Source: Marinifilum sp.
Lineage (GTDB): Bacteria > UBA9089 > CG2-30-40-21
Length of the DNA stretch: 53,488 bases
NCBI GenBank assembly: GCA_020717845.1
Contig: DYDG01000002.1
Span: forward strand, 1-53,488
Direction: 5' to 3'
Below, piece after piece: positions 30,401-52,408 of this stretch; position 1 is the stretch's first letter, and each line of letters begins with the position of its first letter. The translations under genes were made by a program, and so were the position numbers. The notes below the pieces were generated by a model. That model saw only the letters and a program-made list of their open reading frames with translations, did no database searches and was not told where the DNA came from.

Positions 30401-33073
30401 AAAGGTTGTCCCACTGCCAGTGGAAAACTCTGAGATGAACGTGCCTCGCAGATAATTTTTCCCATCATACGGCAAGGCATTGCTTGCTGTCCAGGCAACA
30501 GAGCCGCCATTCTTCACATGCTCAAAAATAGCCTTGTAAGCATTCCTTAATTGATCAAGCTCAAGTGGTGAAGTAACAGGATTTGCCTGTTGTCCACCCA
30601 TAGGAATGATCACGCTCTGCGGTAAAAATTGATAGCCCATGCCAAGCGGCTCACCGGTTATTTCCATAGAATAATCGCTGGGATAGTTGTTGGTATTATA
30701 GGCACGAACAGCGATGTAATATTTTGTCCCATTATCAAGACCGGTCAGGGTATAGGTGCAGGCATTACCAGCGTCAACAGGCTGATTGTATGCCTGTTTA
30801 TTAGCTGTAGCCGCACAGGAGATTGTGCCATAATAGACCAAATATCCGCCAACATCAGGGACATTGGTTGGACTCCAACTGAAAATAAGCTGTGAATCCA
30901 TGGCAATGGCTGACAGATTGCCTGGCGGGGCAGGAAATTGTCCAGTAGTAATGCCATAAATACAGTTAGAAAGTGGTGAAAGGTTTCCGGCATCGTCTAT
31001 TGCCTTTAGGGCAAGATAGTATTTGGTGTTAAAGTTTAAGCCAGTGACAGTCCATGTCTGACCACTACCGCCTGCCAAAGGTTGAGGCTCACCAAAAACC
31101 TCTTGACACGATGACCAGCTTGCCTCAGTGATAGGCGAGGTTGAATAGCGAATATCATAGGCTGTAATTGTCCCGCGACTGCCATTATCCCCGGGTGCCT
31201 TCCATGAAATATCAATGGTGCTGGCTGAGACAGTCCCTGCCTTAAGGTCAGTGATATTCCCTGGCATAAGCCTGTCTATGGAGACAATGTTAGACAGCCC
31301 GGAAAAGTTTTTCTCCTCATCCATGGTTTTTATCCCAAAATAGTATTCGTCAGCATTCAAGGAAAGCCCGGAGACAATGGTTACCTGAGCCTGCCCTTCT
31401 TTGGACGGCATAGGTGCATTTGGCACAGATTTAGCATATGCCCAGTTTGCCTCAATTATAGTGGATGTTGAGTATCTAATATCATAGGTGTCTGCATGAC
31501 CTACTGCATCCCTGTGCCAGGTAAATGTACCGTCATCACCCGGCGATGTCCAAACAAGCATCAATGAATTACTGGTTGGGTTAACAATGCCCAGGTCAGT
31601 GATGGTTCCTGGCGAGGTCATGTCCTTTGTCCTGCCAGAGGCGACACTACCACCACTTGGAAAAAGGTTAGACATAGGAGAGGATGAGACACCATCTGAT
31701 GCCTTTAAGGCAAAGTAGTACTGTGTTTCCGGCTGGATGGTGCGGCTGCCAAATGGCTTCTTGAGATCACCATCAGCGATGACAACCATGTGCTCCCTTC
31801 CACCTGCCTCAGACGGGGTTGGGATAATGCCGGGGACGGTCAGGCATGAGTCAAAATTCCCCTCAGTAATAAAAGAGGTTGAATATTTTATGGTATAACT
31901 GCCGGCAATGCCCCCTGCTCCATCGCCGCCCGGTGCTGTCCAGTTTAGTATCATGCTATGATCCGTTGGGTCCATGGCATACCATGTCCCCTCCCATTTA
32001 TACTTGCTGTCAAGGTCTGTAACCTGAGATGGGGCAATGTTGGAGAGAAAGACAGAGGTGGATACTGCCGGAGAGTATTCTGGATAGGATGTAGTGGTCC
32101 CCTGTGTCATGGTCCCCTGATCCTTATAGCAAAAGACAGCGTAATGATAGGTCTCATTAAGCGTAAGGTTGTAGTTGTCCACATGCTCATCCTGCCAGAC
32201 ATTATAGCTGGTTGCCGTAGCATTGTAGATAACCGTAGCTGAACCAATCTTATCACCAACCGTATATGTTGCACCAGTAGTCGGTGTAGCCATGATTTTT
32301 ACTGTATCTCGCAGGATAAGCACACCCTTAAGACAACCTACTGGCGGGTTTTTCCACTTCAATCGGATGCTGTCATTGTTTGACTGGGCAGAAAGGTCTG
32401 TTACTGGATTAATGTTCCAATCTTTAAGGTCAAACCCAAAGGTAACCTTTGCCTTTGCCGGCAGCCTTACGTGAAACATGTCCGCCAATTGAAGGTCAAT
32501 GGTATATGTCCCTGGGGTAAGGTTGTTAAAGGTATATTCTGTATCATTGTGGAAAAATCCCATCCACGGCTCCTGCTTGGTCTGGCTGCCAACCAATGTC
32601 TCCTTCCAGAGTACAACAATAATACTCCCCTCAGCCACCTTATCCTCTCCCTCTCCAGTGGCAGTTAAAGAAAAGTCCTGCACATCGAATTTAGCGGTTA
32701 CCGTGCCATTACTTTTTGTTTGTGTTCCTGGTGTTGGCCAGATAATGCTCAAGCTTGGCACACGTTTACTGGCGGTGAAGCTGACATCAGTGATACTGGC
32801 ATTACTTATGGTACGAGTAGCTGAGCCGGGTGTAAACTTTAAGCCCGACTGCTCCGGGATGATAGTATATGTGCCGGCATTCAATCCGGTAAACTTGAAT
32901 GAGCCAGCAGAATTGGTAAGCACTGCCTTAGAGGCAGCACCAGACAGAGACACGGTGATACTTCCCACAGCAACACCGCCTGTAATCGTGCCACTAATCT
33001 CGTATGCCCAGACAGGCACACAAGCAACAAAATACAACAACGATAGAACCATAACCCTTTTGATAATGTTCAT
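24431..33073 (-). CDS. 2880-aa secreted/surface protein with multiple fibronectin type III and Ig-like domains
   Basis: Signal peptide, repeated W[TK][AS]PGD.G...YDIRYSTS.I FN3 modules, a central alpha/beta region, and C-terminal GWNL..LP repeats. Confidence 0.88.
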   Translation of the reverse strand: MNIIKRVMVLSLLYFVACVPVWAYEISGTITGGVAVGSITVSLSGAASKAVLTNSAGSFKFTGLNAGTYTIIPEQSGLKFTPGSATRTISNASITDVSFTASKRVPSLSIIWPTPGTQTKSNGTVTAKFDVQDFSLTATGEGEDKVAEGSIIVVLWKETLVGSQTKQEPWMGFFHNDTEYTFNNLTPGTYTIDLQLADMFHVRLPAKAKVTFGFDLKDWNINPVTDLSAQSNNDSIRLKWKNPPVGCLKGVLILRDTVKIMATPTTGATYTVGDKIGSATVIYNATATSYNVWQDEHVDNYNLTLNETYHYAVFCYKDQGTMTQGTTTSYPEYSPAVSTSVFLSNIAPSQVTDLDSKYKWEGTWYAMDPTDHSMILNWTAPGGDGAGGIAGSYTIKYSTSFITEGNFDSCLTVPGIIPTPSEAGGREHMVVIADGDLKKPFGSRTIQPETQYYFALKASDGVSSSPMSNLFPSGGSVASGRTKDMTSPGTITDLGIVNPTSNSLMLVWTSPGDDGTFTWHRDAVGHADTYDIRYSTSTIIEANWAYAKSVPNAPMPSKEGQAQVTIVSGLSLNADEYYFGIKTMDEEKNFSGLSNIVSIDRLMPGNITDLKAGTVSASTIDISWKAPGDNGSRGTITAYDIRYSTSPITEASWSSCQEVFGEPQPLAGGSGQTWTVTGLNFNTKYYLALKAIDDAGNLSPLSNCIYGITTGQFPAPPGNLSAIAMDSQLIFSWSPTNVPDVGGYLVYYGTISCAATANKQAYNQPVDAGNACTYTLTGLDNGTKYYIAVRAYNTNNYPSDYSMEITGEPLGMGYQFLPQSVIIPMGGQQANPVTSPLELDQLRNAYKAIFEHVKNGGSVAWTASNALPYDGKNYLRGTFISEFSTGSGTTFSTLTAVGTLTGFDLVVSEPGVGMGNVLGVTKSYSLQKVRVAVFYSGVKDTYGQPITWEEGYFERLFRMYLWDAQKFTSIDEAGIAGGALSNYDMVIFPAVKKGYMDAIRGAITAGGLTNLRSFVEAGGFLYSQGESNYIAEMAGLVGTGTVDLNTRVSIPDSIGQMSILDDSSPVVFARLSNNMYVLDDPMLKDKEGQTTVARYTNVSGNPPAIVTVEKNRGQVILMNGHPSDKREYYPLALNPVLWAMSQKAGLACDGVQKFNEEVERDVIPGLEADVPVNVSVSFSNFWNTTLNSVEVISVVQKGFKITDNSNVTPQATQTIGTDGTTILSWTFDQMLQGRLTFCYTVFTEANALKKGEAVVCETKAVYTEGDEKITVYALPVKMRAQMAARLVGDRALEKQSVYGVSGAGTHFDVKFPIENKEDTEARKVYIQDLVALVSPAIDPTNYRRIPSAVWNTNNGNNHSIWIQNEAYFFQDGKYPLPAEAENDIKRRFNINDWDGKTTYVFEQPEGSSTDIVVPDRYKSAVWGPEHNVPLIQKTETGDIILPAYQLTWPSLAKGTDGATIQGYDYLEPAIRYGIRAIELPPDGVEYARTILMKTLPNIPDNYVVNGKVIMDAPALGFMILLGGDPIPYRELLASSGAYAPRVTDPADIPMLTYQDIWNRPHTATLRTMDPQYAKVSDFFPTVKLHPEVNDTFELFEDTNNNDIWDTNEKLFLEYDITKKAKLHLVIKTGNISTEFPDVVKPADIYNLNRDQNVITCSVFKGLGYNIEYGGHWSCDDLQKIGNPTQLVKEFDTDMFHVLQFQQRLDAGKREQINVYATMTTYPDVHREGFMKVNDGTEYVYHTPKAGPNQYQIFNAHVQGVFGIGNNVEVTKKVAPVNIGNYGDTIYHIIKVEDPYEPRQFEMDPYLRSYGFGGLASTIFVGGRENENLYSSRLHSGESTMVRIEVCNNLGDFDGKAYHLTDVKIEPDASTVPGWMSISQDVLWNTIPPIHGDLVYLLASQTENPAIYESWKGVLYFKITTNNIPDEAKGKVHPIKFKLSCTDPGGKLTEFRNLSENTTKSIIPEAWIGVYDDQGKITTTYGKANIVTLKDGFPDFVQVEKAKLMTESEKETFIGQMGWDIDQYPRGTSASVYFDGLGAGRDISTTQVGSNVTFKMSSITDPKATATTVPWTYDGTETKTFYVVVKSETAVGTSGMKMVNSGANVEYTDHFSNIGTSASTSQSVVAHGPRVEMGYILDGVRRGFNQVLTKELIMGEKNDVELRITLSNEGDNIANKAKGTVTLGSGVTLGSSSILCRKEGDTVIWDNLGDIAPGAVKEVKITVSITPPAGTTSSAPMLKAASKKAASKSPPIVRAAAPTYTLITTTGINFEDSFTGKKVTPSPKGSLTIMAAPAILTAPNGLVATSHPGSVSLSWNAVTAAKGYNVYRSEGINAGTYTKIAILGTKTSYVDITMDEDITYCYVVTAVDGTEESSQSNPSSAAPGDIWPPATVILKSTVKTESSITLEWTSPGDNGSKGTVTVYDIRRSVSPVAVFDSYSQCDGEPVPIKAGENQNIPITDLQPSTTYYFYLKSCDEIGNWSGLSNKLSITTNAAPTLSTSTRLSQGWNLYSLPLKSSTKYTSQSLGAAINIQSGKCTIVQSWQGGAWKTRKVDVGIGDTFTIEIGKGYFVYCESPSVFTVSGVQVKTQQLQFVPGWNLIGLPIGTMSGRLLGLPSAGTISSNLLGKDIRYQDGTCTVIQSWNNLASKWLTTIFTDGFPDGFADTFDITLGKGYFVYANEGSLYSPNRITLSNVGSNTAVVSYTTWDNVSSWLRYGTNSAVLTNLVYDIRGEGSQTTKHYVNLSGLAPNTTYYYDIITSGSTDDNNEKHYSFKTGGAISAAGSKIVSGKVGGVSKDAMVYVRLRDTDATGDSGVSAWASTRTNSSGAWSVDINTIRKLDMTGLFSYSTSGDTIEVVVDGNEDGRGKKTADTSLTNLGDITLE

Positions 33074-34598: not shown

Positions 34599-35426
34599 TT
34601 ACTTCTCCACAATATCATAATTTGCAATCAACAATTCTTTCCCCTTTTGTGCTGTTTGCTGTTTATAATTGTTCATTCCGTATTGCAATTCCCACTCAAC
34701 CTGATAAAAGTCTCTAAATAATGTTCGGATATATTCATTATTATCATAGGTTATTAACCATTTATGTTTACATTGCTTGAGATTTTCAAAAAATATTTTG
34801 TGATCAAACCCTACATGAAGACACCCCTTTTTCCCATATAACCTTGACTGAGTAGTTGAATAATATGGTGGGTCCAAAAAAATAAACACATTTTCTCCAT
34901 TTCTATATAAAAGCTCAGTATAATCTTTTGGGCTGAATTCTATATGTTTAACAATATTGTAAGCGTTTTCTAATCGCTCAATTGAAGACAGTGTAAATCG
35001 TTTTTCAAATGCTTGTTCTGAATATCCTCCACTATCTACAACACCAGAAAATGTAATTCTGTTTAGTACAAAAAAATCAATTGCTCGCTGAAAATCTGAT
35101 AATGCCTGCTTTCGTTTAGCAATAAGTTCTTGAAATAATTCTCTTCCATTGACATATTCTTTTTTTACTCGGAGGATTTCTTTGATTAAATTATCCTTAT
35201 TTGATTGTAATTCCTTCCAAAAACAATATAAGTCATAATTTGCATCACTTGCATAATACCGAGTAGATGATTTTTTTTGAACACAATAAAATGAAAATGA
35301 CCCTCCTCCAAAAAACGGTTCTCTCAACTCTTCATATTGAGGAATGAAAGCAGAAAGATAGCCTACTGCCCTGGATTTTCCTCCTGGATAACGCAAAGGA
35401 CTCTTAATCATCTTTTTTCCTCTCAC
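34599..35426 (-). CDS. Dam-like (D12 class) N6-adenine DNA methyltransferase
   Basis: SPLRYPGGKS, EPFFGGGS, FLDPPY and WLITYD. Confidence 0.93.
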   Translation of the reverse strand: MRGKKMIKSPLRYPGGKSRAVGYLSAFIPQYEELREPFFGGGSFSFYCVQKKSSTRYYASDANYDLYCFWKELQSNKDNLIKEILRVKKEYVNGRELFQELIAKRKQALSDFQRAIDFFVLNRITFSGVVDSGGYSEQAFEKRFTLSSIERLENAYNIVKHIEFSPKDYTELLYRNGENVFIFLDPPYYSTTQSRLYGKKGCLHVGFDHKIFFENLKQCKHKWLITYDNNEYIRTLFRDFYQVEWELQYGMNNYKQQTAQKGKELLIANYDIVEK

Positions 35427-36555
35427 CGTATTCTATTACGACCTCAAAGTTGTTTGCTCTTGCTTCCTTGAACAAGGTATTAACAAATTCTTCTTTATTT
35501 TTCCTGAAACGGTTCTCATGGAAGAATGTTTTAATCTCACTTTCGTTCATATTTGTTGTAATTTTGCCCTGTATTTTTTCGGATGTTAGCCTGAGTACAG
35601 GAATAAAATTGACAAGCGTTTTTGAGTTAATATCTGTTTCTTCATAAAGTTTATCTATATTTGAAAAAAGCATCATCTTGATAAGCCCATCTTTTATATC
35701 ATTTTCTCCAGGTAAAATTGACTTTTTGGAATGTTTGCTTTCGATAAGTTCATACCTGTTGTCATGAATAATCACATCATCAACTGTTAGAAAATATTTA
35801 CCGCCCAAATAATTCTCTATTTCGATAGGTGTTTTTACTCCTACGCTTAATACCTCTTTTGGTTGAGTCGTCCCTATTTCTCTTTTCTGTGCCTGAGCAG
35901 ATTTGAGTCTTGAAAAGGCTAAAAAACTCTCTTGACTTATAATGATACGTTCTCTGAAGGCTTCTATCCCTGCTTCATTATGAAGCTTAACGCCTGTCTT
36001 ATTTGAAATTAGTCGATAACTGAGAATGACTTTTTCCATAAGACCATCTAATTTTTCAGGGCTCAATTGATTTAAGTTCCAGTGTAGAGCAGATGAATGA
36101 TAGTTGGATAACTCCTTTAATTGAGCTTTTACGAAATCACCATCCAACTGTTGTTTTGTTATTCTATTTGGTTTTTGAGCGTCTCGATAATTCTTTTGGG
36201 CATCCATATAATAAGCAAGGATGACATATACATTTAACAAGCTCATTAATTGGACAGTGTCCCATTGGAGATAGTCTATGTTTTGAGAATCTGCTCCTTC
36301 ATCTTTTACAATAGGTATAACCGTAATGGTTTTTCCTCCACAAGTAGATAAAGTGTCATACACACTGGCGAATGGATATGTTCTTGTTCTTTTCGGACCA
36401 GTCCATTTACTGACTGCATAAATTGTATCGTTATCCTTAATACAACATCTTGATTGCCAAGCATTCACATCAGTATCAAATAATACGGTTAACAAAGGGC
36501 TTTTAAGAAAACTTTCGTACCTCATATTCATTATTTTGCCAATTAATTTGGACAT
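35404..36555 (-). CDS. Putative type II restriction endonuclease
   Basis: Lies between two MTases and overlaps the Dam-like gene; TVDD...IESK PD-(D/E)XK-like motif. Confidence 0.7.
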   Translation of the reverse strand: MSKLIGKIMNMRYESFLKSPLLTVLFDTDVNAWQSRCCIKDNDTIYAVSKWTGPKRTRTYPFASVYDTLSTCGGKTITVIPIVKDEGADSQNIDYLQWDTVQLMSLLNVYVILAYYMDAQKNYRDAQKPNRITKQQLDGDFVKAQLKELSNYHSSALHWNLNQLSPEKLDGLMEKVILSYRLISNKTGVKLHNEAGIEAFRERIIISQESFLAFSRLKSAQAQKREIGTTQPKEVLSVGVKTPIEIENYLGGKYFLTVDDVIIHDNRYELIESKHSKKSILPGENDIKDGLIKMMLFSNIDKLYEETDINSKTLVNFIPVLRLTSEKIQGKITTNMNESEIKTFFHENRFRKNKEEFVNTLFKEARANNFEVVIEYGERKKDD

Positions 36556-36571
36556 ATTTACAACCCCCTGT

Positions 36572-37687
36572 TTATTTAGTTATTTGGTTTAATCGTTCAA
36601 TAGCATATTGAACATACTTTTCCTGAGTATCAATCCCAATATGTTTCCGTCCTAATTTCTCAGCAACTATATTTGTTTGTCCGCTTCCAGCAAATATATC
36701 GATAACAGTATCGTCTTTATATGAATAAAACTGAATAATTCTTTTGGCTAATTCTTCTGGAAAAGGACAGGGATGAAGATTTTGTTGGGGAGCAACCGGG
36801 GGAATCTTCCAGACATTTTTGCTCAGTTCTCCTTGATAATCTCTCAAATCAATCTTATTTGTTTGCTTATCTTCACGTGAACGAAAGTAGTAGATATTAT
36901 TTTCTTCCTTTTTACCTGCTGGCTTTTGGAAAACCAATACATATTCAGCAACCAAACTTGGATAATAATAACCTGGATATGGGTGTTGCATTAACACACC
37001 GCTTCTCTTATCTTTTGCAATCTCTTTTTCCCAAATAATATCTTCCTTGAACTGCCAGCCTATTTCCTCCATCCATCCTGTAAAATGAAAAGGTAATGGT
37101 ACTCGGATACCGTTCCATCCTACTGGAGAAATATTCACAACATTATATCCTCCTGGCTTAATAATACGATATAATTCCTTAAATCGATCAGTCAAAAATG
37201 TTCGATAAAAGTCGTAGGAAACTTCTTTGCGTGTCCAATACTCGATTTTTCCCTCAAGTTTTTGGATATGTTCCTCATAATTGATAGCGTTATGATATGG
37301 AGGAGAAGTAAAGGCAAGGATAATAGAATCATCAGCAATAGATTTCATAGCTTCCAGACAGTCGCCTTGAATAATTTCTCCTCGTCCAATTTCATGAACT
37401 CTGATCTTCTCTTGTGTCCATTTAAATCGTCTCCCTAATTCTAAGGCTGAAATAATCTGTAACGCTTTCGTGGTTCCAATCCCTGGGAATTCGCTTAATT
37501 TTTCTATAGAAATCGAATTGTTTAGATTTGTGCGGATATATTCAACCAGTTCTTTGCTTAAATCAAAGACATTTTTCCCTTTAGAACCATGCCCCAAAAT
37601 AATAGCAATCAAATCTTCAGTACTTATTTGTGTAGGATTTTTAATTTCAAGTAATTTTTCTCTTGGTTTTTTAGATTCGGTATTCAT
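36572..37687 (-). CDS. RadC N-terminal (HhH) domain fused to a beta-class N4-C/N6-A DNA methyltransferase
   Basis: KPREKLL..EDLIAIILGHG..GIGTTKALQIISALELGRR (RadC N-terminus), then TSPPY, HPCPFP and DIFAGSG. Confidence 0.85.
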   Translation of the reverse strand: MNTESKKPREKLLEIKNPTQISTEDLIAIILGHGSKGKNVFDLSKELVEYIRTNLNNSISIEKLSEFPGIGTTKALQIISALELGRRFKWTQEKIRVHEIGRGEIIQGDCLEAMKSIADDSIILAFTSPPYHNAINYEEHIQKLEGKIEYWTRKEVSYDFYRTFLTDRFKELYRIIKPGGYNVVNISPVGWNGIRVPLPFHFTGWMEEIGWQFKEDIIWEKEIAKDKRSGVLMQHPYPGYYYPSLVAEYVLVFQKPAGKKEENNIYYFRSREDKQTNKIDLRDYQGELSKNVWKIPPVAPQQNLHPCPFPEELAKRIIQFYSYKDDTVIDIFAGSGQTNIVAEKLGRKHIGIDTQEKYVQYAIERLNQITK

Positions 37688-40158: not shown

Positions 40159-40405
40159 ATAATTTATTTTACGCCCTTTTATAATGAGCGACTATTGATA
40201 ATCAATAATTATATACTCAATAGCGTTATAATTTGTGATTTTCAATTTTGTCAAGTTCAGGCATAATCGTTTCGACATTTCGACTTCGCTCAATGACCGC
40301 TCCGCTCAACGACCATGTTCCCAACGTTATCTGCAAGCAAAGAAAATCACAATTTGTGCCAGTGTTGAGTATAATTTAGATAATGCTTAATACCGCAGCT
40401 TCCAA

Positions 40406-40490
40406 CTTGAGCAAGCAAGACCACAAGCAGGATGCTTGTAATACTATAACAACTCAAGCCCCCAGCTTGATAGGCAGGAGATACCACACA
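40406..40490. repeat. About 85-bp dispersed repeat, copy 1
   Basis: cttgagcaag..ccacaagcaggatgcttgt..cagcttga.agg.aggagataccaca; second copy at about 50570-50652. Confidence 0.8.
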
Positions 40491-40609
40491 CTATGTGTCC
40501 TATTATCCATAACACAAGCAGGATGCTTGCAGGACATGCAGAAGCAAAGAATCATATTTAGATAAATTGAGTTGATTTCTCACAATACAACAGTTTCATG
40601 AGCATAAAA

Positions 40610-40685
<76 letters not shown>

Positions 40686-40703
40686 ACAAGAAAGATTTTT
40701 CTT

Positions 40704-40732
40704 ATTATACTATGATTTCCCCTGATTGTCAA
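40704..40732 (-). promoter_or_regulatory. Consensus sigma70 promoter of tRNA-Phe
   Basis: TTGACA-17 nt-TATAAT on the minus strand, about 18 nt upstream of the tRNA. Confidence 0.8.
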
Positions 40733-40752
40733 GATAATTTTTATATTTTTGT

Positions 40753-40945
40753 GTAATGCGTCAGTGATTGGTAGGGAAGATGTGTAAGAAGAAGGAGAAG
40801 TGGAAAAAGGGAGAATTGGAGAAAAAGCTTTAAGGTGTTGCAATAACAGATATTTTCCCCTTTTCTCCATCTTCTCCTTTTCCCCTTTTTTACACCTCTG
40901 GACAATGCACTATCTTCTTTTACCTACCAATCACTAACGCATTAC
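40753..40945. mobile_element. MITE-like element with 23-bp terminal inverted repeats
   Basis: gtaatgcgtcagtgattggtagg / cctaccaatcactaacgcattac (22 of 23 match), enclosing purine-rich and pyrimidine-rich arms. Confidence 0.65.
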
Positions 40946-41000
40946 TTCTCACCTAAAAAAACACTTGCAAATCACTACCATTTATGATATAGTTAAAATC

Positions 41001-44000
41001 ATGATGAAGATCAGGGATTTGATTGAAACACCACAGGTTAAAACGGTTATCCAGTTAGAAGATGTGCATTCAAAGGATAGGGGTGTTCTTGAAGAGCTGC
41101 TGAATTCCTTTGTCTTTACTGAAGAGGTATCATTTAACCTTGAAGTACTATTTGATGCCTTTAGTAAACCCACAGGCACAGGCTGTTTTTTGAAAGGCAA
41201 TTATGGCAGTGGAAAGTCACACTTTCTGGCAGTTCTCTCCATCTTGCTGGAACACATGCCTCTGGTTGATAAAAGGGAGATTGCTTCCAGATACTTATTG
41301 AGGGAAAAGAGATTTCTGACGGTTAAGATCCCATTGGTACGCTACCCCAGCTCGCTCAAGTTAGAGGAGATTATCCTCTCTTCTATTGAGAAGGAATTTC
41401 CTACACCTATCATTTTAGCCAACCATAACCGTTTGGTCAATGATTTTAACAAATATATCCTGCCTCAGCACCCAGAATTCCTCAAAGAACGTACCCAGCA
41501 GCAGTGGCAGGGATTAATCCAGGAGGATTCACTGACCGCTGCTCGGGAGATTGTCAGCTACTTAAATACCCTTGAGTCTGTCCCCTTAAAGTATCATTAT
41601 GACCGGGAAGAGGCTTTTGAAAGGATAAGGGCAGCGATTAATGGTGAGGGATTAGTTCTGCTTATTGATGAGCTTTCAGAATTCCTTAAGGCAAAGCAAA
41701 AAACTACTGATTTTAATGAGGATGTGCGTTATCTGCAATATCTGGGTGAGAAGGCAGCATCCTCGCCGCTCTGGATAATTGCCTCCCTGCAGGAAGGGAT
41801 TGAGGAGATAGGCTATTTAGAGGAGGCATTGTTTAACCGCATCAAGGACCGCTATCCAAAACGGCTCACCCTTTCCTCACGCCACATCGAGGAGCTGATT
41901 GACAAAAGACTGATTATCAAGAAACAGGGAGCCACAGCACACATCAGCCAGGTCTACACCAATCTCAGGCACGCCTTCCCACACTTAGTCATGGATAAGG
42001 AGAAATTCATCCAGCTTTATCCAACTCATCCAGCAACCATTCGCATGTTAGAAGGGTTGTCCCTGCTCTTTTCCCAGCATCGCGGGGTAGTTGATTACAT
42101 CCACTACCAGATTGCCGGCGACATGAGCCGACAGATTGAAGGGATGCTGGATAAACCTGCTGACACACTTCTTACCCCTGATACCATCTTTGACCATTTT
42201 AGCCATCGTATCAAGGAGACGGTTGAGATTGCCCCTTATTATAATATTGCCTTCAGCTATTTTCAGCGGGAGATACCTGAGCTCTTTAAGAAAGAGTTTG
42301 ACCAGAAGATTGCCTTAAATCTGGTTAAGCTATTGATCCTTACCGAGCTGTCACCACTGGAAAAAAGGCATACCGTCAGAGAACTCACCAATATGCTGGT
42401 CAAGAAGGTAACAGATCTGGAAAGCGGGTTTAATTATGACTATATCAAAGAGGCTATCTTAGACAGATTGCTGATAGAGGCAGCCTATATTAAGAGTGAG
42501 CCTGCGGAAAATCCTTTAGATGCTATTTATTACCTTGACCTTGAGGCAAATATCAACCAGCTTATTGCCCGCTATACCAAGGAACTCATCAAGGAATTGA
42601 AGACAAAGGAACAAAGTTGTTTGGGGCTGCTTAAGGCTATTAACCCCACCTACCTACCTCTGTCTGGTCTGTCTGAAGGCAGACAGAAACAATTTATCCG
42701 CTGGGAAAATACAACCAGAGAGGGGATAGTAACCCTGTGTGATTTGCGAGACGTCTCATTAAGTGAGATGGAATTGCTTTCTCAAAACCTGCTTAAAGAG
42801 GTAGCACCTCTGGCACAGGAGACAGATTTTGTCCTTTTAATGGGGTTGCCTGTTTCTATTGATGAGCAAAAGGAGTATATCACTAAACTATTGGGTTATC
42901 AGCAGGCTAATGCCCTTTTGCAGAATATTGTTGTCTGGCTGCCAACTTATCTAACCCCGCAGGATGAGGACTATTGTTTTACTACCTACAGCCATCAGAT
43001 ACTTATGCAAAGGTGCCAGAATAATGACCCGCATCAACTCAAGCCTGTCCTGAGCAAGATGGTGGAAAAAGAAATGCCAAGGATGCGTGAAATCTTAACT
43101 GAGGTCTACTTTAGGGGTAGTTTGTTTAATGCCCAGGGAGAGAGGAAAACCGCATTAAAGGATCTGGGTTATCCTGCCTTTGAGCATTTATTAAAGACCA
43201 TATTCAGCCCGCTGCTTTCTTTAAGCTATCCCAAACATACCGAGATTATGCCTTACACAGATTATATCACCCCGCATACCATCGAAACGCTCTGGACAGA
43301 ATTCATCACCCTCGAAAAAATTACCCTGAAGCAGGCACAGGAAAAGGATGTGCAAAATAGTATTGAAACAATTGCTATCCCTATGGGATTGGCTAAAAAA
43401 ACCGCTAATTATTTTATCTTGAATGTAGAGGCAACCAAAAATGAATTAATTATCGATTATCTGTCCCATCTTTTGCCGGGTAAAAGGGTGAAGCTTGAAA
43501 ATCTTTACTGGCGATTGCGTAAAAGCCCATGGGGGATAGACAGACACCAATTTAATCTCCTGACCGCAGCCCTTATCCATACAGGCTATCTCACCCCTTA
43601 CAAGGAAGGACGCATCAGCCCATTTCCTTCACCAGCAAAGCTTTATTCATTTGGGATAGACGAGCTGGGTGAAGGGAAATTATTGGAAAAGGAATATCTT
43701 GAGCTTTTGCCTTTGGGCAATTTTATCTGGGGTGGGGTAAGCAGGACACCCTTTACCCTGATTACCCAACGTCAGCTCTGGGATGAGGCATTGAAATTCA
43801 AATCAAAGACAGACACCAGCCAATCGGCAAGGGTTTATACCCGTTTCAGCGATTATTCGGCATTCAAATCACTCATCGTGGATGAAATCAATAAAATTGT
43901 CTTATCAGTAGAGGATTTTCTGGATGAGATTAAAATAAGCTATGATTCTAAGAATGGCCTGGAGCGAATTCTCTCCTACCTTCAAGAGCATTCTGATGTT

Positions 44001-46229
44001 AGTAATGATTATACTGCCTTTCAAAATTTACTAACCTTTTTCCCCCCCTTTTCTCAATACGCCCAGGAGTATAACCGTATTTATAATTATATCCATCATC
44101 CGCAGCTTTATATTCCAGCTAATGAGGAATTCAGCTATCTGAGGCAGAAAAAGGAGAGGCTTGACACTATCAATTTAAGCGAGATTATCTTTAATGGTGA
44201 GTTTGGGGAGGTGCAAAGCGATTATGGTGACTTTGTTACTGCCTTTGGAGAGGTTTACAGCCAGCACCATCAAGATTATTATAACCAGAGCTATTTCAGT
44301 CAGATAAAGGAATTTCGACAGGAATTGGAGTATAACCTCTTAGAGCGTCTGTCAAGGACAAACCTGATTTCAGTAGAAAATGACCTGGTTTTTATAGAAC
44401 GACTGCTCTCTTCTGGGCAAAAAGAGTGTACAAAAAGATTAAACGAGGAGCTTGAGCTTAAACCTATATGCAGCTGTCAGTATCGACTGGGACAGGAGGG
44501 CTGCTTCCCGAACCTGGAAGAGGTGCGAATGAAGATACGCAGCGGTATTGTGGAATATATTCAGGCAATTAAAGAGCCAAACATCCGTGCCCCACTTGAG
44601 AGTCATATCCGTGGTTTGAGTGAACTCGGCCGTCAGGAGGCAGAAGACTTGAGAAAACTTATTCAACTGGATACCTCTAATCAGGAACGGTTAATCACCC
44701 AGTTGCGTTATCTTCTAACCGATAACCTGATTGACCAATTAAATCAGGCACTTGAAGGCAGACAGCTGATTGTTAAACGGAATCTGGAGGATTTGATTGA
44801 CCGAATTGTCCAACGCAAGTTTCAGAAGGCAAAACTCAAGAAATGCTTTGAGGATTGGCTGGATGGTGGTGAGAAACTCAGCGAAGAGGTTTATGTCTCA
44901 ATTAATTCAGGGAAAACAAATGTTGAGTATGCTGGCTTAGAAGAGATTGTCAAGGAAGAGGACGAAAGATTTTTAACTGCTTTCTGGGCAGTTTGTGCCT
45001 TAGCCCAGCATAAACCTATGGAGGTATTAAGGCAAAGCCTGTTTTTACGCAGCTCTTATCAGATTGACCTGAATCGATTGGATGAGGTTATCAACAAGGG
45101 CAGTGAATTAAAAAAACAGCCGCAAGCTGTAAATCAGATTGAGCTTGCAGAGCAAAGGATAAGGGATCAGAACCAGACAGAGCAGTTTTTAAGGGAGCTG
45201 AACCTTGCTGCCAGGACTGTTGATGAGCTATTGCAGCTGATTGGTGGTGAGGAAATATTCAGGTTTGTGTCCAAAGAGGCGGTCAGGCTGTTGCTTACTC
45301 GATTATTGAGCGAAGAGATCCAGCAGCCATTAAGTATTGAGTTGGTGAGACCTGACTGGTATCACCTGCAGATGGCAAATGATTTGTCCATGCTCCTGTC
45401 GCGGATGAAAAGCTATCAGACAGAAAAGGCAGAAACGGATCTTTTCAATGCCTACATCAACCATATCTCGCCAATCAACTTTTTGATAGAACGGCTTGCT
45501 AATAACAACTTCAGGGAAGGTATTCTGGTTGATAGCACGCTTAAGGAATTGAGACAGAGGGTCAGTCAATTGACTAAGGAGTATCAGCAGCGGTTCTCTA
45601 CAGAGCTGTCAAGGCACAAGCATTGGACAACAGCTGATTTTCTTAAAAAGATATTCCATCCCACCCGGGCAAAATATTCTGAGACAACCTGTTTTATCCT
45701 TATCCTGGACGCTGGCCGCTGGGATGTGTTTGAGTATCTTCTGCCTGACATAAAAGCCTGCCTGTCCAATCACGAATTATCCATGATAACCCCGTTAGAG
45801 GCACTTGAGCCAACAACCACGGAGGTTAACCGCCAGGCAATGGTGGGTGCATTGTTAGAAAAAGAGGAAGAAAAGGCTGAGGCTGTTTTTTATACCTATG
45901 TTGAGGGAATAAACAAACGGGAAGAGATCGGGCAGGTATTAAGCGATGAAAAACCTATCAAAATATTCAACTTCAATTTTATTGACAAGCGGCTTCATAC
46001 CTCCATGCTTGAACCTCCTCTTCTTTACCAGGAGCTCAAGTTAGAGCTAAAAGCCAATATCCTGCCGTATTTCAAGAACATACCCAGACAGAGCCTGATT
46101 TTCATCCTTTCTGACCACGGTTTTTCATATCAGCCATCAAAAAAGGAAGCCTACGCACACGGCGGTAGCTCGGTGTTTGAAAAGGTTGTTCCCTGCGGGG
46201 TATGGGTGCCGAAGGTGGGAAATTGGTAG
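41001..46229 (+). CDS. BrxC/PglY-like (DUF6079-type) P-loop ATPase fused to a C-terminal PglZ-like alkaline-phosphatase domain
   Basis: GNYGSGKSH Walker A, LLIDELSEFL Walker B, YPTHP and CxC. C-terminal ILDAGRWD, IDKRLH, SDHGF and HGGSS..EKVVP. Start set to the ATG at 41001. Confidence 0.85.
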   Translation: MMKIRDLIETPQVKTVIQLEDVHSKDRGVLEELLNSFVFTEEVSFNLEVLFDAFSKPTGTGCFLKGNYGSGKSHFLAVLSILLEHMPLVDKREIASRYLLREKRFLTVKIPLVRYPSSLKLEEIILSSIEKEFPTPIILANHNRLVNDFNKYILPQHPEFLKERTQQQWQGLIQEDSLTAAREIVSYLNTLESVPLKYHYDREEAFERIRAAINGEGLVLLIDELSEFLKAKQKTTDFNEDVRYLQYLGEKAASSPLWIIASLQEGIEEIGYLEEALFNRIKDRYPKRLTLSSRHIEELIDKRLIIKKQGATAHISQVYTNLRHAFPHLVMDKEKFIQLYPTHPATIRMLEGLSLLFSQHRGVVDYIHYQIAGDMSRQIEGMLDKPADTLLTPDTIFDHFSHRIKETVEIAPYYNIAFSYFQREIPELFKKEFDQKIALNLVKLLILTELSPLEKRHTVRELTNMLVKKVTDLESGFNYDYIKEAILDRLLIEAAYIKSEPAENPLDAIYYLDLEANINQLIARYTKELIKELKTKEQSCLGLLKAINPTYLPLSGLSEGRQKQFIRWENTTREGIVTLCDLRDVSLSEMELLSQNLLKEVAPLAQETDFVLLMGLPVSIDEQKEYITKLLGYQQANALLQNIVVWLPTYLTPQDEDYCFTTYSHQILMQRCQNNDPHQLKPVLSKMVEKEMPRMREILTEVYFRGSLFNAQGERKTALKDLGYPAFEHLLKTIFSPLLSLSYPKHTEIMPYTDYITPHTIETLWTEFITLEKITLKQAQEKDVQNSIETIAIPMGLAKKTANYFILNVEATKNELIIDYLSHLLPGKRVKLENLYWRLRKSPWGIDRHQFNLLTAALIHTGYLTPYKEGRISPFPSPAKLYSFGIDELGEGKLLEKEYLELLPLGNFIWGGVSRTPFTLITQRQLWDEALKFKSKTDTSQSARVYTRFSDYSAFKSLIVDEINKIVLSVEDFLDEIKISYDSKNGLERILSYLQEHSDVSNDYTAFQNLLTFFPPFSQYAQEYNRIYNYIHHPQLYIPANEEFSYLRQKKERLDTINLSEIIFNGEFGEVQSDYGDFVTAFGEVYSQHHQDYYNQSYFSQIKEFRQELEYNLLERLSRTNLISVENDLVFIERLLSSGQKECTKRLNEELELKPICSCQYRLGQEGCFPNLEEVRMKIRSGIVEYIQAIKEPNIRAPLESHIRGLSELGRQEAEDLRKLIQLDTSNQERLITQLRYLLTDNLIDQLNQALEGRQLIVKRNLEDLIDRIVQRKFQKAKLKKCFEDWLDGGEKLSEEVYVSINSGKTNVEYAGLEEIVKEEDERFLTAFWAVCALAQHKPMEVLRQSLFLRSSYQIDLNRLDEVINKGSELKKQPQAVNQIELAEQRIRDQNQTEQFLRELNLAARTVDELLQLIGGEEIFRFVSKEAVRLLLTRLLSEEIQQPLSIELVRPDWYHLQMANDLSMLLSRMKSYQTEKAETDLFNAYINHISPINFLIERLANNNFREGILVDSTLKELRQRVSQLTKEYQQRFSTELSRHKHWTTADFLKKIFHPTRAKYSETTCFILILDAGRWDVFEYLLPDIKACLSNHELSMITPLEALEPTTTEVNRQAMVGALLEKEEEKAEAVFYTYVEGINKREEIGQVLSDEKPIKIFNFNFIDKRLHTSMLEPPLLYQELKLELKANILPYFKNIPRQSLIFILSDHGFSYQPSKKEAYAHGGSSVFEKVVPCGVWVPKVGNW

Positions 46230-46236
46230 GCGTTCA

Positions 46237-46343
46237 GGTGTAAATAAGGGAAAAGAGGAAAGTTGAAAAAAGGGGAAATCTAATTATTCCATAGATTCTT
46301 TTTTCCATTTTCCCCTATTTCCCCTTTTCCCTTCATTACACCC
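46237..46343. repeat. Purine/pyrimidine-arm inverted repeat downstream of the ATPase-PglZ gene
   Basis: ggtgtaaataagggaaaagagg...ccccttttcccttcattacacc; similar to the interior of 40753-40945. Confidence 0.6.
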
Positions 46344-46879
46344 TGATGGGTGGTCAGCTTGAGTGTCTTGTTCAGTGATTATTCCTGGAATTTCATATTC
46401 TATACGCCCATTTTTCCACACCGGAATTTTATATTTGTTTTTTCGTGAGCGTTGCATGGCAACATTTCGACTCTGCTCAATGACCACCAAAGCCATATGG
46501 ACACTCGTAAGCAATGATTGACTCCCTTTTCTGCCATATTTCAGGGCAAACGCATTTAAATCCCACAATTGCATCTGCCGATCGTTCAGGATGTGTATCC
46601 TGAACACAAAGTTGAGGACTGTCAGCAGTTAAGATTTATCTTGACTGCCATGCAGATTTGTGATATATTAATTCAAAAAGTAAAAGAGGATCTGCAAGCC
46701 TATTTGAGCATAAGATGCCCGGGGAATAAGCAATCAAATTTTCCAAGTAAACGACTGCTGAATAGACATAAATAGTCATAATGGTTAGCACACTCATCCA
46801 AAAATCACAGTGTGAAGCTCATAACATTGCTCGAGGATGAAAACAATGAGTAATGTGTCAAATTCCTTAAGAGGTTGCT

Positions 46880-50186: not shown

Positions 50187-50340
50187 GTTGGAAAAAGACA
50201 AGGAGCAAGGAGACGAAAGCTGCCAGCGAGTGGAGAGAAAACAGCGGTGGCAGGAATCATTGCCCCACCAAAGAAGCTGATGCAGCAATTCTCAATAGTA
50301 GGGCAAGCATCCTTGCTTGCCTTTGTGTGCCCCAAAATAA

Positions 50341-50549
50341 GGTGGTGTCTGAGAATAGCTTAGCTTGTTAGTTGTCGGATAATTTCTGCCACAAAGGCAC
50401 TAAGACACGAAGGTTCTCTAAGACATATCTTATAAAATTATCCGTTCTTTCCGTTCTTAATGAGTGCTTTAAAATTTTCTTTGTGCATCTTAGTGCCTTA
50501 GTGCCTTTGTGCCTTTGTGGCAAACTTTTAGCTAATTTCAGACACCACC
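50341..50549. mobile_element. MITE-like element with 20-bp terminal inverted repeats
   Basis: ggtggtgtctgagaatagct / agctaatttcagacaccacc (18 of 20 match), with inner inverted ccacaaaggcactaag / cttagtgcctttgt octamers. Confidence 0.65.
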
Positions 50550-50569
50550 GTTTTTTCTTATTGAACCGC

Positions 50570-50652
50570 CTTGAGCAAGTAAAACCACAAGCAGGATGCT
50601 TGTGATACTAAAGTAAGTCAAGCTTCCAGCTTGACAGGTAGGAGATACCACA
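50570..50652. repeat. About 85-bp dispersed repeat, copy 2
   Basis: Homologous to 40406-40490. Confidence 0.8.
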
Positions 50653-50732: not shown

Positions 50733-51122
50733 ATGGATGTCAAAGAAAAGATAGAATATTGGCTTGATATTTCTTGCTATGATATGGACACTGCAGAGGC
50801 AATGCAAAGAAGTGGAAGATACCTGTATGCTGTTTTTATGTGTCAGCAAGCCATAGAGAAGCTATTAAAAACTCTTCATATTCAAAAGCTTGGGACAGAG
50901 TCCCCTTTTTCTCATAATTTGGTTTACCTCCAGAGCTTGCTTGATATTAGTCCTGATAAATCCTATTTAGAATCAATGGCAGAGTTGACTGCCTATTACC
51001 TGGAAGGACGGTACCCTACTTATAAGCAGAAACTCTCTTCGTTAATCACTCAAGAGAAGGCAGAAGATATTTTGAAGAAAACAAAGGAAATATTTCAATG
51101 GTTAATATCTCTCCTGAAATAA
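50733..51122 (+). CDS. HEPN domain protein
   Basis: FMCQQAIEKLLK, SHNL and GRYP motifs; paired with an MNT gene. Confidence 0.9.
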   Translation: MDVKEKIEYWLDISCYDMDTAEAMQRSGRYLYAVFMCQQAIEKLLKTLHIQKLGTESPFSHNLVYLQSLLDISPDKSYLESMAELTAYYLEGRYPTYKQKLSSLITQEKAEDILKKTKEIFQWLISLLK

Positions 51123-51430
51123 GAAAGGCTATTATGAGTTATATTGGTGAAATAAATAATATCTGTTCAATAGATAAGGCTATTGTCTTTGGATCATATG
51201 CCTCAGGACATCATTCTCTAAATAGTGATATTGATATAGCCATATTTTCCAGAGAGATTAACGATAATAACCGTCTGGAATTTACAAAAACCTTCTTTAT
51301 GAAGATTGATAAGTATAAATTGGATATTCAACCTTTAGCTTTTGCTTTGACTGACCTTATGAATGAGAATAATGACTTTATTATTAATGAAATAAAAAAT
51401 AAGGGGATAGAAATATATAGTCGGGGTTAA
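51098..51430 (+). CDS. Minimal nucleotidyltransferase (MNT), partner of the HEPN protein
   Basis: FGSYASG...SDIDIAI motif. Confidence 0.9.
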   Translation: MVNISPEIRKAIMSYIGEINNICSIDKAIVFGSYASGHHSLNSDIDIAIFSREINDNNRLEFTKTFFMKIDKYKLDIQPLAFALTDLMNENNDFIINEIKNKGIEIYSRG

Positions 51431-51479
51431 AACTATACATAGTACCTCATGACATTTAATCTTAGGGGTAGGGTGGGCA

Positions 51480-51784
51480 AAGGCAAGTATTTAGGGAAAA
51501 CAACACCAGTTGGAAGTTATCCGCCCAATGCCTTTGGGCTTTATGATATGCATGGCAATGTTTGGGAGTGGTGTTCTGATTGGTATGGAGAAAAGTACTA
51601 CGATGAGTGCAAGGAACAGGGGGTTGCAGAGAATCCTGAGGGGCCGGAAACCGGTTCGCACCGTGTGCTGCGCGGCGGTAGCTGGGGCGACTTTGCCATG
51701 CCCTGCCGCTGTGCGTCTCGCCACTACTACAGCCCGGGCTACCGCGGCGGCACTATCGGTTTCCGCCTGGTCTTCGTCCCGTAG
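51480..51784 (+). pseudogene. 3' fragment of an FGE-sulfatase (SUMF1/C-type lectin fold) gene with a DGR-like variable region
   Basis: PNAFGLYDMHGNVWEWCSDWY...RVLRGGSW...GFRLV. The 5' part is missing and the ORF start is supplied by the inverted repeat. Confidence 0.85.
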
Positions 51785-51905
51785 TCAGTTGGCGGTTGTT
51801 CGACTTTACCTATGAGCATACGAGTTGTTTGAACGGAAGGAGTGGGAGCGGAGGGACGAAGCGACCGACGAGTGGAGTGAATTAACCAAAGAGGAGGATA
51901 AAACT

Positions 51906-52259
51906 ATGGGCGTTACTTATGTTGAAGGCCAGGTGAAAGGGTTGGCGGGTAAACAAGAAAATGTGAAATTTCTTGTTGATAGTGGAGCAACTTACTCACT
52001 TTTACCTAAAGCTGTGTGGGAAACAGTTGGATTGGAGCCTAAACGGAAATTATCTTTCACCCTTGCTGATGGTACCACAATTGAGAGATCGGTGTCCGAA
52101 GCTTTTGTTGTCTTTCCACAAGGAGAAGCTCATACACCAGTAATTTTGGGCGAAGAAGGCGATGAAGCATTGTTAGGTGTAGTTACCTTAGAAATTTTGG
52201 GTCTTGTATTGAATCCTTTTGATCGCACCCTTCATCCTATGCATATGTTGTTGTGTTGA
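51906..52259 (+). CDS. Clan AA (retropepsin-like) aspartic protease
   Basis: FLVDSGA catalytic motif, TLADG and ALLGVVTLE; ATG at 51906 with gaggagg RBS. Confidence 0.88.
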   Translation: MGVTYVEGQVKGLAGKQENVKFLVDSGATYSLLPKAVWETVGLEPKRKLSFTLADGTTIERSVSEAFVVFPQGEAHTPVILGEEGDEALLGVVTLEILGLVLNPFDRTLHPMHMLLC

Positions 52260-52408
52260 TTAAAAAGGTGTAGCTGATGGAAATAGATTGGTGGGCAATG
52301 CCCACCCTACCCCTAAGATTAAATGTTATGAGGTAGTGGTGTTGTGTCAACCATCAATTACTTACCTTCTCCTCTACCTGACTACTTCTTAAAAGCAGGT
52401 GTTTGTTC

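Follow-up and report, generated by a model that had tools for sequence, protein, structure and literature searches.

A single-chain fusion of a BrxC-type ATPase and a trimmed PglZ domain in Marinifilum sp. that seems to stand without its usual TPR partner

Introduction

The way in which BREX halts phage is not yet settled. Type 1 BREX needs four to six proteins and is therefore hard to reconstitute. In a natural chain that joins BrxC to PglZ, with neither BrxB nor a methyltransferase, the two universal components of these systems stand by themselves. Such a chain is encoded on the forward strand of the DNA analysed here, a 53,488-nt stretch of a Marinifilum sp. assembly (GCA_020717845.1, contig DYDG01000002.1, positions 1 to 53,488; hereafter the window). 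This BrxC–PglZ fusion, termed the window fusion, is a real and conserved variant of the BREX core that has apparently gone undescribed and lies outside BREX membership. The window copy, moreover, seems to stand without a TPR partner.

BrxC dimerises through its tail and assembles on DNA in an ATP-dependent manner (PMC13326643). BREX PglZ cuts DNA in a metal-dependent reaction, and ATP inhibits the isolated protein (PMC12205998). BrxA- and BrxB-like genes are reported to be universal in BREX, and PglZ carries a C-terminal immunoglobulin (Ig) domain (PMC12839542). In the BrxC:BrxB:PglZ core complex BrxB links PglZ with the head of BrxC, and the BrxB-binding part of PglZ comprises residues 1–98 in the ternary crystal (10.64898/2026.04.09.717308); the fusion in that report is an engineered BrxC–BrxB chain. 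Among the known systems closest to the window fusion are the BR type 3 and BRC systems of Rakesh and Krishnan, in which an ATPase resembling BrxC and a PglZ of reduced size likewise occur apart from canonical BREX. However, in both systems two different genes encode the ATPase and PglZ. BR type 3 is described as having a DUF499 ATPase, a methyltransferase, a helicase, an iSTAND protein and a cap-bearing PglZ, whereas the fusion ATPase is of the DUF6079 type; BRC consists of HerA (HerA/FtsK), STAND and DUF4007 proteins (PMC12839542). Neither partner set recurs beside the fusion family, whose recurring neighbours are TPR proteins and helicases only, and the word 'TPR' is absent from the main text of PMC12839542. 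No natural BrxC–PglZ fusion or TPR-linked BREX derivative was found in titles and abstract openings of a mostly non-subscription literature; the supplement of PMC12839542 may list some. The family is seen almost only in metagenome-assembled genomes, which may explain why it has gone undescribed.

The fusion gene

The gene and its parts are listed below. Residue numbers are counted from TTG 40965; subtracting 13 gives the numbering from ATG 41004.

41004..46229, forward strand: BrxC–PglZ fusion gene, 1741 aa from ATG 41004; the frame opens at TTG 40965
40965..40993, forward strand: sigma70-like site TTGCAA-17-TATAGT with extended -10, ~10 nt 5′ of the start
41004..42640 (end approximate), forward strand: BrxC AAA+ ATPase and first winged helix-turn-helix domain, with Walker A K84, Walker B D235/E236 and arginine-finger segment R292/R296
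42641..44870 (approximate), forward strand: remaining BrxC, with central domains, coiled coil, H1102/C1155/C1169/C1171 and C-terminal subdomain
44922..45680, forward strand: PglZ-derived helical region, residues ~1320–1572, matching BREX PglZ from ~residue 165 on
45681..46214, forward strand: PglZ catalytic core without cap, with D1582, T1619, D1674, H1678, D1717, H1718 and H1732

A preliminary description, made from the letters of the window, had proposed one uninterrupted open reading frame (ORF) of about 1740 aa, with an N-terminal P-loop ATPase and a C-terminal phosphatase-like domain whose metal ligands looked intact, and had read it as a single-chain BrxC–PglZ fusion. Each of these points was borne out. 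The frame is unbroken from 40965 to 46229 (1754 codons counted from TTG), and ATG 41004, kept in the sister genome G002, in G008 and at locus L023, is the likely start; ATG 41001 is kept in G002 only. The promoter-like site is conserved in the same three relatives. The sigma70-like consensus has 21 matches against 12.3 expected, 40965–40993 among these, which alone is weak evidence. The site would give a near-leaderless fusion mRNA that does not depend on an upstream gene.

The junction between the two parts is supported. One sequencing-run contig of 5391 nt, which may come from the source sample of the window, spans 40906–46296 with zero differences and a flat depth of 13.7, and the fusion recurs in hundreds of clusters across many phyla. 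It is therefore no assembly artefact, and a chimera of brxC and pglZ is largely refuted. Partial cover of the gene also comes from a second sequencing study, in which strain differences are seen. RNA-run pieces matching the gene were not accepted as a sign of transcription.

A BrxC-type ATPase joined to a trimmed PglZ

Sequence comparison shows that residues 1 to ~1,300 make up an entire BrxC/DUF6079 ATPase. The P-loop GNYGSGKS occupies residues 78–85 and the Walker B motif residues 232–236. DUF6079 alone was matched in a Pfam scan (E 6.7e-35) and 13 BrxC models in a PADLOC scan (best 1.2e-26), whilst the score against NCBIfam BREX_BrxC was 86 for a cut-off of 400. Aligned with hhalign, a family profile of 39 sequences matched the stand-alone DUF6079 protein P0049 with a probability of 99.9 over 1126 columns (positions 3–1291), and the family profile also reached the solved Acinetobacter BrxC chains 9zdx, 9zll and 9zn5 (E 5e-18 to 9e-16). 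The likeness to BrxC/PglY (DUF6079, PF19557) extends over ~1,290 profile positions, in which Walker A, Walker B and the arginine finger align: K84, D235/E236 and R296 are invariant in the BrxC alignment, and R292 and R296 fall opposite K326 and R330 of Acinetobacter BrxC. Further along, C1155, C1169 and C1171 are invariant wherever rows reach (126–127 of 135, the others being gaps), as is H1102 in a different alignment, and these four residues likely form a zinc site. Unlike BrxC/PglY, the fusion chain runs on into PglZ. Moreover, in a FastTree phylogeny of 104 ATPase regions (midpoint root, weak backbone support) the fusion family forms a separate clade, apart from type 1, type 3-like and DUF6079-type BrxC rows.

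The last 435 residues are, as modelled, a trimmed PglZ. The preliminary description had proposed DUF6079 and PF08665 as diagnostic models, and only the first of these recognises the protein: PF08665 has no match to the window fusion and, of 18 proteins scanned, passes its cut-off on P0013 and stays below it on five more. However, a profile of the C-terminal 715 residues matches PorX (E 5e-14) and the BREX PglZ chains 9nv3 (5e-11) and 9zn5 (9e-7). A single-sequence fold of the C-terminus reached a predicted local distance difference test score (pLDDT) of 35 and was replaced by an AlphaFold2 model from an 84-sequence alignment (mean pLDDT 93). Among 48,161 chains compared with this model PorX was best (7pv7, 8ted; Z 21.9, 270 residues, root mean square deviation 3.7). 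Model residues 281–714 superimpose on PglZ 167–756 of 9zn5 (Z 19.3, 401 residues, deviation 4.2) and the model matches 9nv3 PglZ 163–739 at Z 15.5, with other alkaline-phosphatase folds at Z 12.9 or less; Foldseek agrees with this ranking.

Seven catalytic positions are described for PorX, D239, T272, D361, H365, D415, H416 and H500 (PMC9757075), and these correspond, in that order, to D1582, T1619, D1674, H1678, D1717, H1718 and H1732 of the fusion. The motifs ILDAGR, SDHG and HGG, noted in the preliminary description, are present. The six metal ligands do not vary in any of the 135 aligned rows; at the nucleophile position 131 rows have T, three have S and one has A.

The helical region and the alkaline-phosphatase core superimpose on type 1 BREX PglZ (9nv3, 9zn5) over ~400 residues, with the ligands and the catalytic Thr kept. 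However, the match opens opposite ~residue 165 and stops with the catalytic core, so that the N-terminal ~165 residues, which hold the BrxB-binding part, and the C-terminal Ig domain are missing. The cap subdomain is deleted as well: from DHG to the last His there are 8–19 residues in 108/135 rows (those in which the pattern matched) and about 80 in PorX, and the H-to-H spacing is 14 residues in the window fusion against 84 in PorX. PglZ is tethered to the BrxC tail, and not bridged to the BrxC head by BrxB as in the core complex. PorX shares the order of helical bundle and catalytic core, but it has a receiver domain where the fusion has an entire BrxC, and it keeps the cap.

No BREX remainder found in the genome

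The window fusion provides a BrxC/PglY P-loop ATPase and a PglZ alkaline-phosphatase-fold domain with intact ligands, two of the marks of BREX. The others were not found. BrxC and PglZ are not separate proteins of a multi-gene operon, and a DNA-modifying gene (a PglX/PglXI methyltransferase or a PAPS reductase) is lacking among the window neighbours, 114 family neighbours and the recurring clusters. That no pglX, brxA, brxB or brxL lies near the fusion, as first noted from the letters, agrees with a scan of the main ORFs of the window. The same holds for the genome, which is 93.98% complete in 181 contigs broken at repeats. It has no match to PF08665, and hence no second pglZ, and no second DUF6079 gene was found in it. 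BrxA and BrxB (PF08849, PF08747) have no match there, with positive controls (BrxA in 4/4 control genomes), and neither does TIGR02688, which we take to be BrxL. The PglX model NF033452 gives just two partial matches of 22 bits for a cut-off of 500. Across 34 genomes searched (32 with the fusion and two with PglZ-less forms), BrxB had no match in 24 and the gene was present in ten. A fused equivalent of BrxA or BrxB was not found by fold search in residues 1040–1754; for residues 560–1040 the comparison relied on profiles alone.

At 1797–6664 on the reverse strand, 34 kb away from the fusion, there are two large genes that encode methyltransferase domains; one of them has an Mrr-type nuclease at its end. 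They give partial matches to PADLOC PglXI (1.6e-24, 9e-11) and weak matches to DUF1156.

A TPR partner in most relatives

The preliminary description had suggested either a minimal one-gene system or one with partners elsewhere. This is supported in part: no BREX remainder came to light, yet the family is normally a two-gene module with a TPR protein of ~330 aa, and the one-gene state seems confined to the window genome and G002. Clustering of the neighbours at 67 loci gave one dominant cluster, an all-TPR protein of 300–350 aa encoded directly upstream, often with a 4-nt overlap (42 members; L024 was unrelated and was dropped). Two collection scans yielded 160 loci with 71 family members. The TPR gene lies upstream in 47 of the 65 family loci with enough upstream DNA, and in 32/37 of those with a complete PglZ. 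Many of these loci had gone into the TPR profile; searches of whole genomes give more independent evidence. In one family (61 genomes) the fusion occurs in 12 genomes and the TPR protein in 11, all among the 12; in one order (72 genomes) the counts are 23 and 21, with both in 20. Over these two sampled taxa the TPR protein thus accompanies the fusion in 31/35 genomes, and the four fusion-only cases are fragments or broken copies. Within the phylum of the window genome it is found in seven of nine fusion-bearing genomes, linked in G003 and G005 and unlinked in G001, G004, G007, G008 and G017. In the sequencing runs the TPR gene of G003 has no cover although its hemA neighbour does; lack of cover is no proof of absence, and the TPR type that matches the window fusion is another one.

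No TPR orthologue was found in the window genome or its sister: the former gave at best 105 bits, from part of a 2217-aa protein, and G002, which is 96% complete, gave 121 bits, while full-length orthologues score 263–348 bits. A tblastn search of the window genome with ten close TPR proteins was also empty. The two fusion copies are sisters in the gene tree (SH-like approximate likelihood ratio test, SH-aLRT, 97), and the next branch, P0004 (83%), has a TPR protein, P0204, whose accession number differs by five and whose contig is equally long. The simplest reading is a single loss of the TPR gene with continued function, the latter being possible because the fusion gene has, as proposed, its own promoter; a double assembly gap hiding the gene in both sisters is less likely. 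Between the window and G002 copies the ratio of non-synonymous to synonymous substitution rates (dN/dS) is 0.11 at a dS of 0.56, with the frame intact, and 0.14 in the PglZ core. These values show purifying selection on the TPR-less pair, PglZ core included.

There is a trend, and only a trend, for the TPR gene to be lost together with PglZ. In nine of ten genomes with PglZ-less derivatives, including one single-chromosome record, no TPR partner was found (among the best 108 candidates in the large ones), and the tenth gave an ambiguous match of 139 bits. The TPR gene is kept in 3/8 closed PglZ-less loci, probably frameshifted members. The copy of G017 (L107, G017:C819), which ends at 1507 aa before the PglZ core, also keeps its TPR gene. 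A complex prediction of the TPR protein with the C-terminal 647 residues of its cognate L029 fusion, without the ATPase end, scored 0.00, which counts neither for nor against binding, and the ESM Atlas returned only generic TPR clusters.

Distribution and history of the family

Full-length fusions recur in other genomes, a check that the preliminary description had proposed. A first homologue search found 49 proteins among 7984 scored candidates, of which 47 (self included) had E <1e-80, mostly 1,400–1,800 aa long; their named sources include Desantisbacteria, Marinimicrobia, Nitrospirae, Nitrospinae, KSB1 and Spirochaetia. The C-terminal profile found 388 clusters at 50% identity (E <=1e-30). 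The fusion is a single-copy, accessory gene, present in the fractions of the family and order given above and in one of 13 other-order genomes of the window's own phylum.

The gene tree is at odds with genus membership. Copies from another family share 79–82% identity with those of the window and G002, and copies from the same genus only 41–45%, although for neighbouring genes identity within the genus is 69–88%. A monophyletic group of the genus copies was rejected by the approximately unbiased (AU) test (p 2e-7; quick tree, 16 rows). High GC content at third codon positions (0.49 against 0.39) was considered as a sign of recent transfer and dropped, because it is raised in the fusion gene of every relative checked (0.44–0.50). 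Broken copies occur in G004, G132, G173 and L043; that of G004 (L105, G004:C202) is split over three frames. PglZ-less derivatives of 1,140–1,450 aa, mostly without the TPR gene, are nested in the family tree (L045, L059, L060, L108, L138, L145, L074–L077, L080, L081).

In the order Halanaerobiales, stand-alone proteins of 410–700 aa consist of the coiled-coil, Cys-cluster and tail region only, with no ATPase or PglZ. Matches occur in 9/72 genomes, and in all four loci examined the gene occupies one conserved chromosomal site:

L271:5771–7000, tail-region-only protein
L272:5627–6883, tail-region-only protein
L273:6203–7483, tail-region-only protein
L274:5218–7311, tail-region-only protein

These are possibly domesticated fragments.

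Predicted function and alternatives

Our preferred reading, which we put forward tentatively and at a little under even confidence, is that the fusion is a methylation-independent, ATP-driven DNA nuclease directed against foreign or aberrant DNA and regulated by the TPR protein in most relatives. The role in defence is a prediction. The order of BrxC and PglZ, the intact Walker motifs and arginine finger and the seven intact PglZ positions are observed, and the model has PglZ begin at ~residue 165, without the BrxB-binding domain. From here the covalent link could stand in for the BrxB bridge. Dimerisation through the BrxC tail and ATP-controlled oligomers on DNA would be expected from the biochemistry of BrxC, and tail dimerisation would pair two PglZ domains, much as phosphorylation drives PorX dimers. 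Loss of the cap might open the active site to polymeric DNA, which would be nicked or cut in the manner of type 1 BREX PglZ. With no methyltransferase, self DNA would be unmarked and a trigger would license cutting instead. TPR domains serve as invader sensors in STAND-type defence. The trigger may be a protein of the invader that the TPR partner senses, or else a DNA structure or a drop in ATP read by BrxC; for the TPR-less window copy only the BrxC route would be left. We consider it doubtful that the window copy works as a single-gene BREX core, in which an ORC/Cdc6-type ATPase loads on DNA, the cap-less PglZ cuts, and self is told apart without DNA modification or, in this lineage, the TPR protein.

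The accessory single-copy distribution looks typical of conflict genes and counts for the preferred reading, as do the architecture with its intact residues, the gene-tree conflict, the broken copies and the purifying selection on the TPR-less pair. Several observations weigh against it. Family neighbourhoods hold mostly metabolic or housekeeping genes. In a PADLOC scan at 1e-20, which covered 114 of 144 listed neighbours, 11 of the 114 gave matches, mostly to generic helicase or other partial domains, and no defence island was seen; none of the 114 matched a BREX core gene, methyltransferase or restriction enzyme at that threshold. Searches of viral contigs (57 weakly matching loci, the best being canonical BrxC) and of plasmids (0/6 matches cover 80% of the query) found no member of the family. 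All five genomes of the same genus carry a copy, which suggests long retention. The gene-tree conflict could stem from old paralogy with differential loss and not from transfer. Finally, helicases are enriched beside the fusion, which fits repair too.

The main rival, unlikely in our estimate, is that a BREX core was domesticated in DNA repair or fork processing. The ORC/Cdc6-like loader, coiled-coil arm, zinc site and nuclease would act at DNA ends or forks together with helicases, the TPR protein serving as a scaffold. An SF1/SF2 (superfamily 1 or 2) helicase gene lies within 3 kb in 21/73 family loci, or 14 once the seven loci that supplied queries are dropped. As a baseline, 354 kb of distal flank hold four helicase ORFs, and 2.4% of random points in the window genome are that near to one. 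Five loci (L124, L127, L128, L043, L277) have a three-gene operon of TPR protein, RecQ (791 aa, with RQC and HRDC domains) and fusion with tight junctions. SWIM-SNF2 helicases adjoin the fusion in several phyla; RecD2, Pif1-like and AddAB-like genes occur once each, and ruvB begins 973 nt downstream of the window fusion. The enrichment points to action on DNA without separating defence from repair. The missing defence-island and mobile-element context in the neighbourhood, viral and plasmid scans, together with the ATPase-less and nuclease-less fragments at their conserved Halanaerobiales site, would suit a repair role. However, it would be unusual for a core repair gene to be patchily distributed, to decay and to have a conflicting tree; helicases of these types serve defence systems too (as their PADLOC matches show); and 52/73 loci have no helicase nearby. 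Moreover, the RecQ-in-operon loci, at least five of the 21 helicase cases, belong to one Desulfobacterota-like clade.

It is quite unlikely that the window fusion is an orphan that needs a TPR subunit, the one-gene state being only apparent because the subunit sits in the unassembled 6% or was lost recently. The frequent co-occurrence of the two genes, often unlinked within the phylum, the nearby TPR gene of P0004 and an assembly broken at repeats all leave room for this. However, a hidden gene would have to be missing from both sisters and escape tblastn in the window genome, and a recent loss sits poorly with an intact, constrained frame at the divergence of the pair.

More doubtful still is that the PglZ domain is a PorX-type oligonucleotide phosphodiesterase acting on cyclic or linear signalling nucleotides under ATPase control, and not a DNase. 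PorX is the best structural and profile match, its nucleotide-contact residues N358 and R276 are kept in the window fusion (N1671, R1623), and both PorX and BREX PglZ cleave cyclic oligoadenylates (PMC9757075, PMC12205998), which counts in its favour. However, these residues vary within the family (N in 53/135 rows, R in 49/135), the cap over the site is deleted, and the full DNA-binding BrxC and the helicase neighbours point to DNA. Neighbourhood scans of the family saw no CRISPR type III or cyclase genes. An ordinary BREX with its other genes elsewhere, for which one might cite the incomplete draft, the partial PglXI-like genes and the ten genomes with BrxB, is largely refuted and scarcely credible, as is a chimera, given that PglZ, BrxA, BrxB, BrxL and PglX have no match over cut-off in the genome, that BrxB has no match in most genomes searched, that the fusion recurs in 388 clusters and that one run contig covers it without differences.

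The family makes three questions testable: whether BrxC and PglZ are enough to act on DNA, how cutting is licensed without methylation of self, and what the TPR protein does. The window copy is a natural minus-TPR control, with plus-TPR and minus-PglZ forms among its relatives, and may offer the simplest natural setting in which to study the working of the BREX core. If it is indeed a one-gene BREX core, BrxC and PglZ would either suffice to restrict or have become a nuclease for DNA repair, and a one-protein system would be at hand to ask how ATP gates PglZ.

Other features of the window

The preliminary description had placed the fusion beside a divergent tRNA-Phe gene and between related hairpins:

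40610..40685, reverse strand: tRNA-Phe(GAA), divergent neighbour of the fusion gene
40753..40945, no strand: dispersed hairpin repeat upstream, with copies in 18 contigs
46237..46342, no strand: dispersed hairpin repeat downstream, related to the former, with copies in 12 contigs

All three are present, and the hairpins are related and purine/pyrimidine-rich. However, this context carries no signal. No tRNA occurs at eight relative loci, there is no second tRNA 3′ end, and the hairpins are dispersed repeats found genome-wide (11–18 contigs each) and not specific to the gene, so the setting is incidental and a tRNA integration site with island ends was rejected. Dispersed palindromic repeat families, resembling repetitive extragenic palindromes (REP) or miniature inverted-repeat transposable elements (MITE), occupy 40212–40945, 46237–46600 and 50334–50652; each is found in 10–38 contigs, often at contig ends.

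A type II restriction-modification cluster lies 3.3 kb upstream of the fusion (34599–37687, reverse strand) and comprises a Dam-like methyltransferase, a restriction enzyme (PADLOC REase_II, 3e-76) and an N4/N6 methyltransferase fused to a RadC N-terminal domain (UPF0758_N). Farther upstream, 24431–33073 encodes a fibronectin-III-rich protein of 2880 aa, probably a surface protein. Downstream of the fusion, a HEPN–nucleotidyltransferase pair is found at 50733–51430. It is followed at 51443–52335 by 37-nt inverted repeats (97%) around an FGE-sulfatase fragment and a small aspartyl protease gene; the repeat arm occurs in seven contigs, and the arrangement resembles a miniature mobile cassette.

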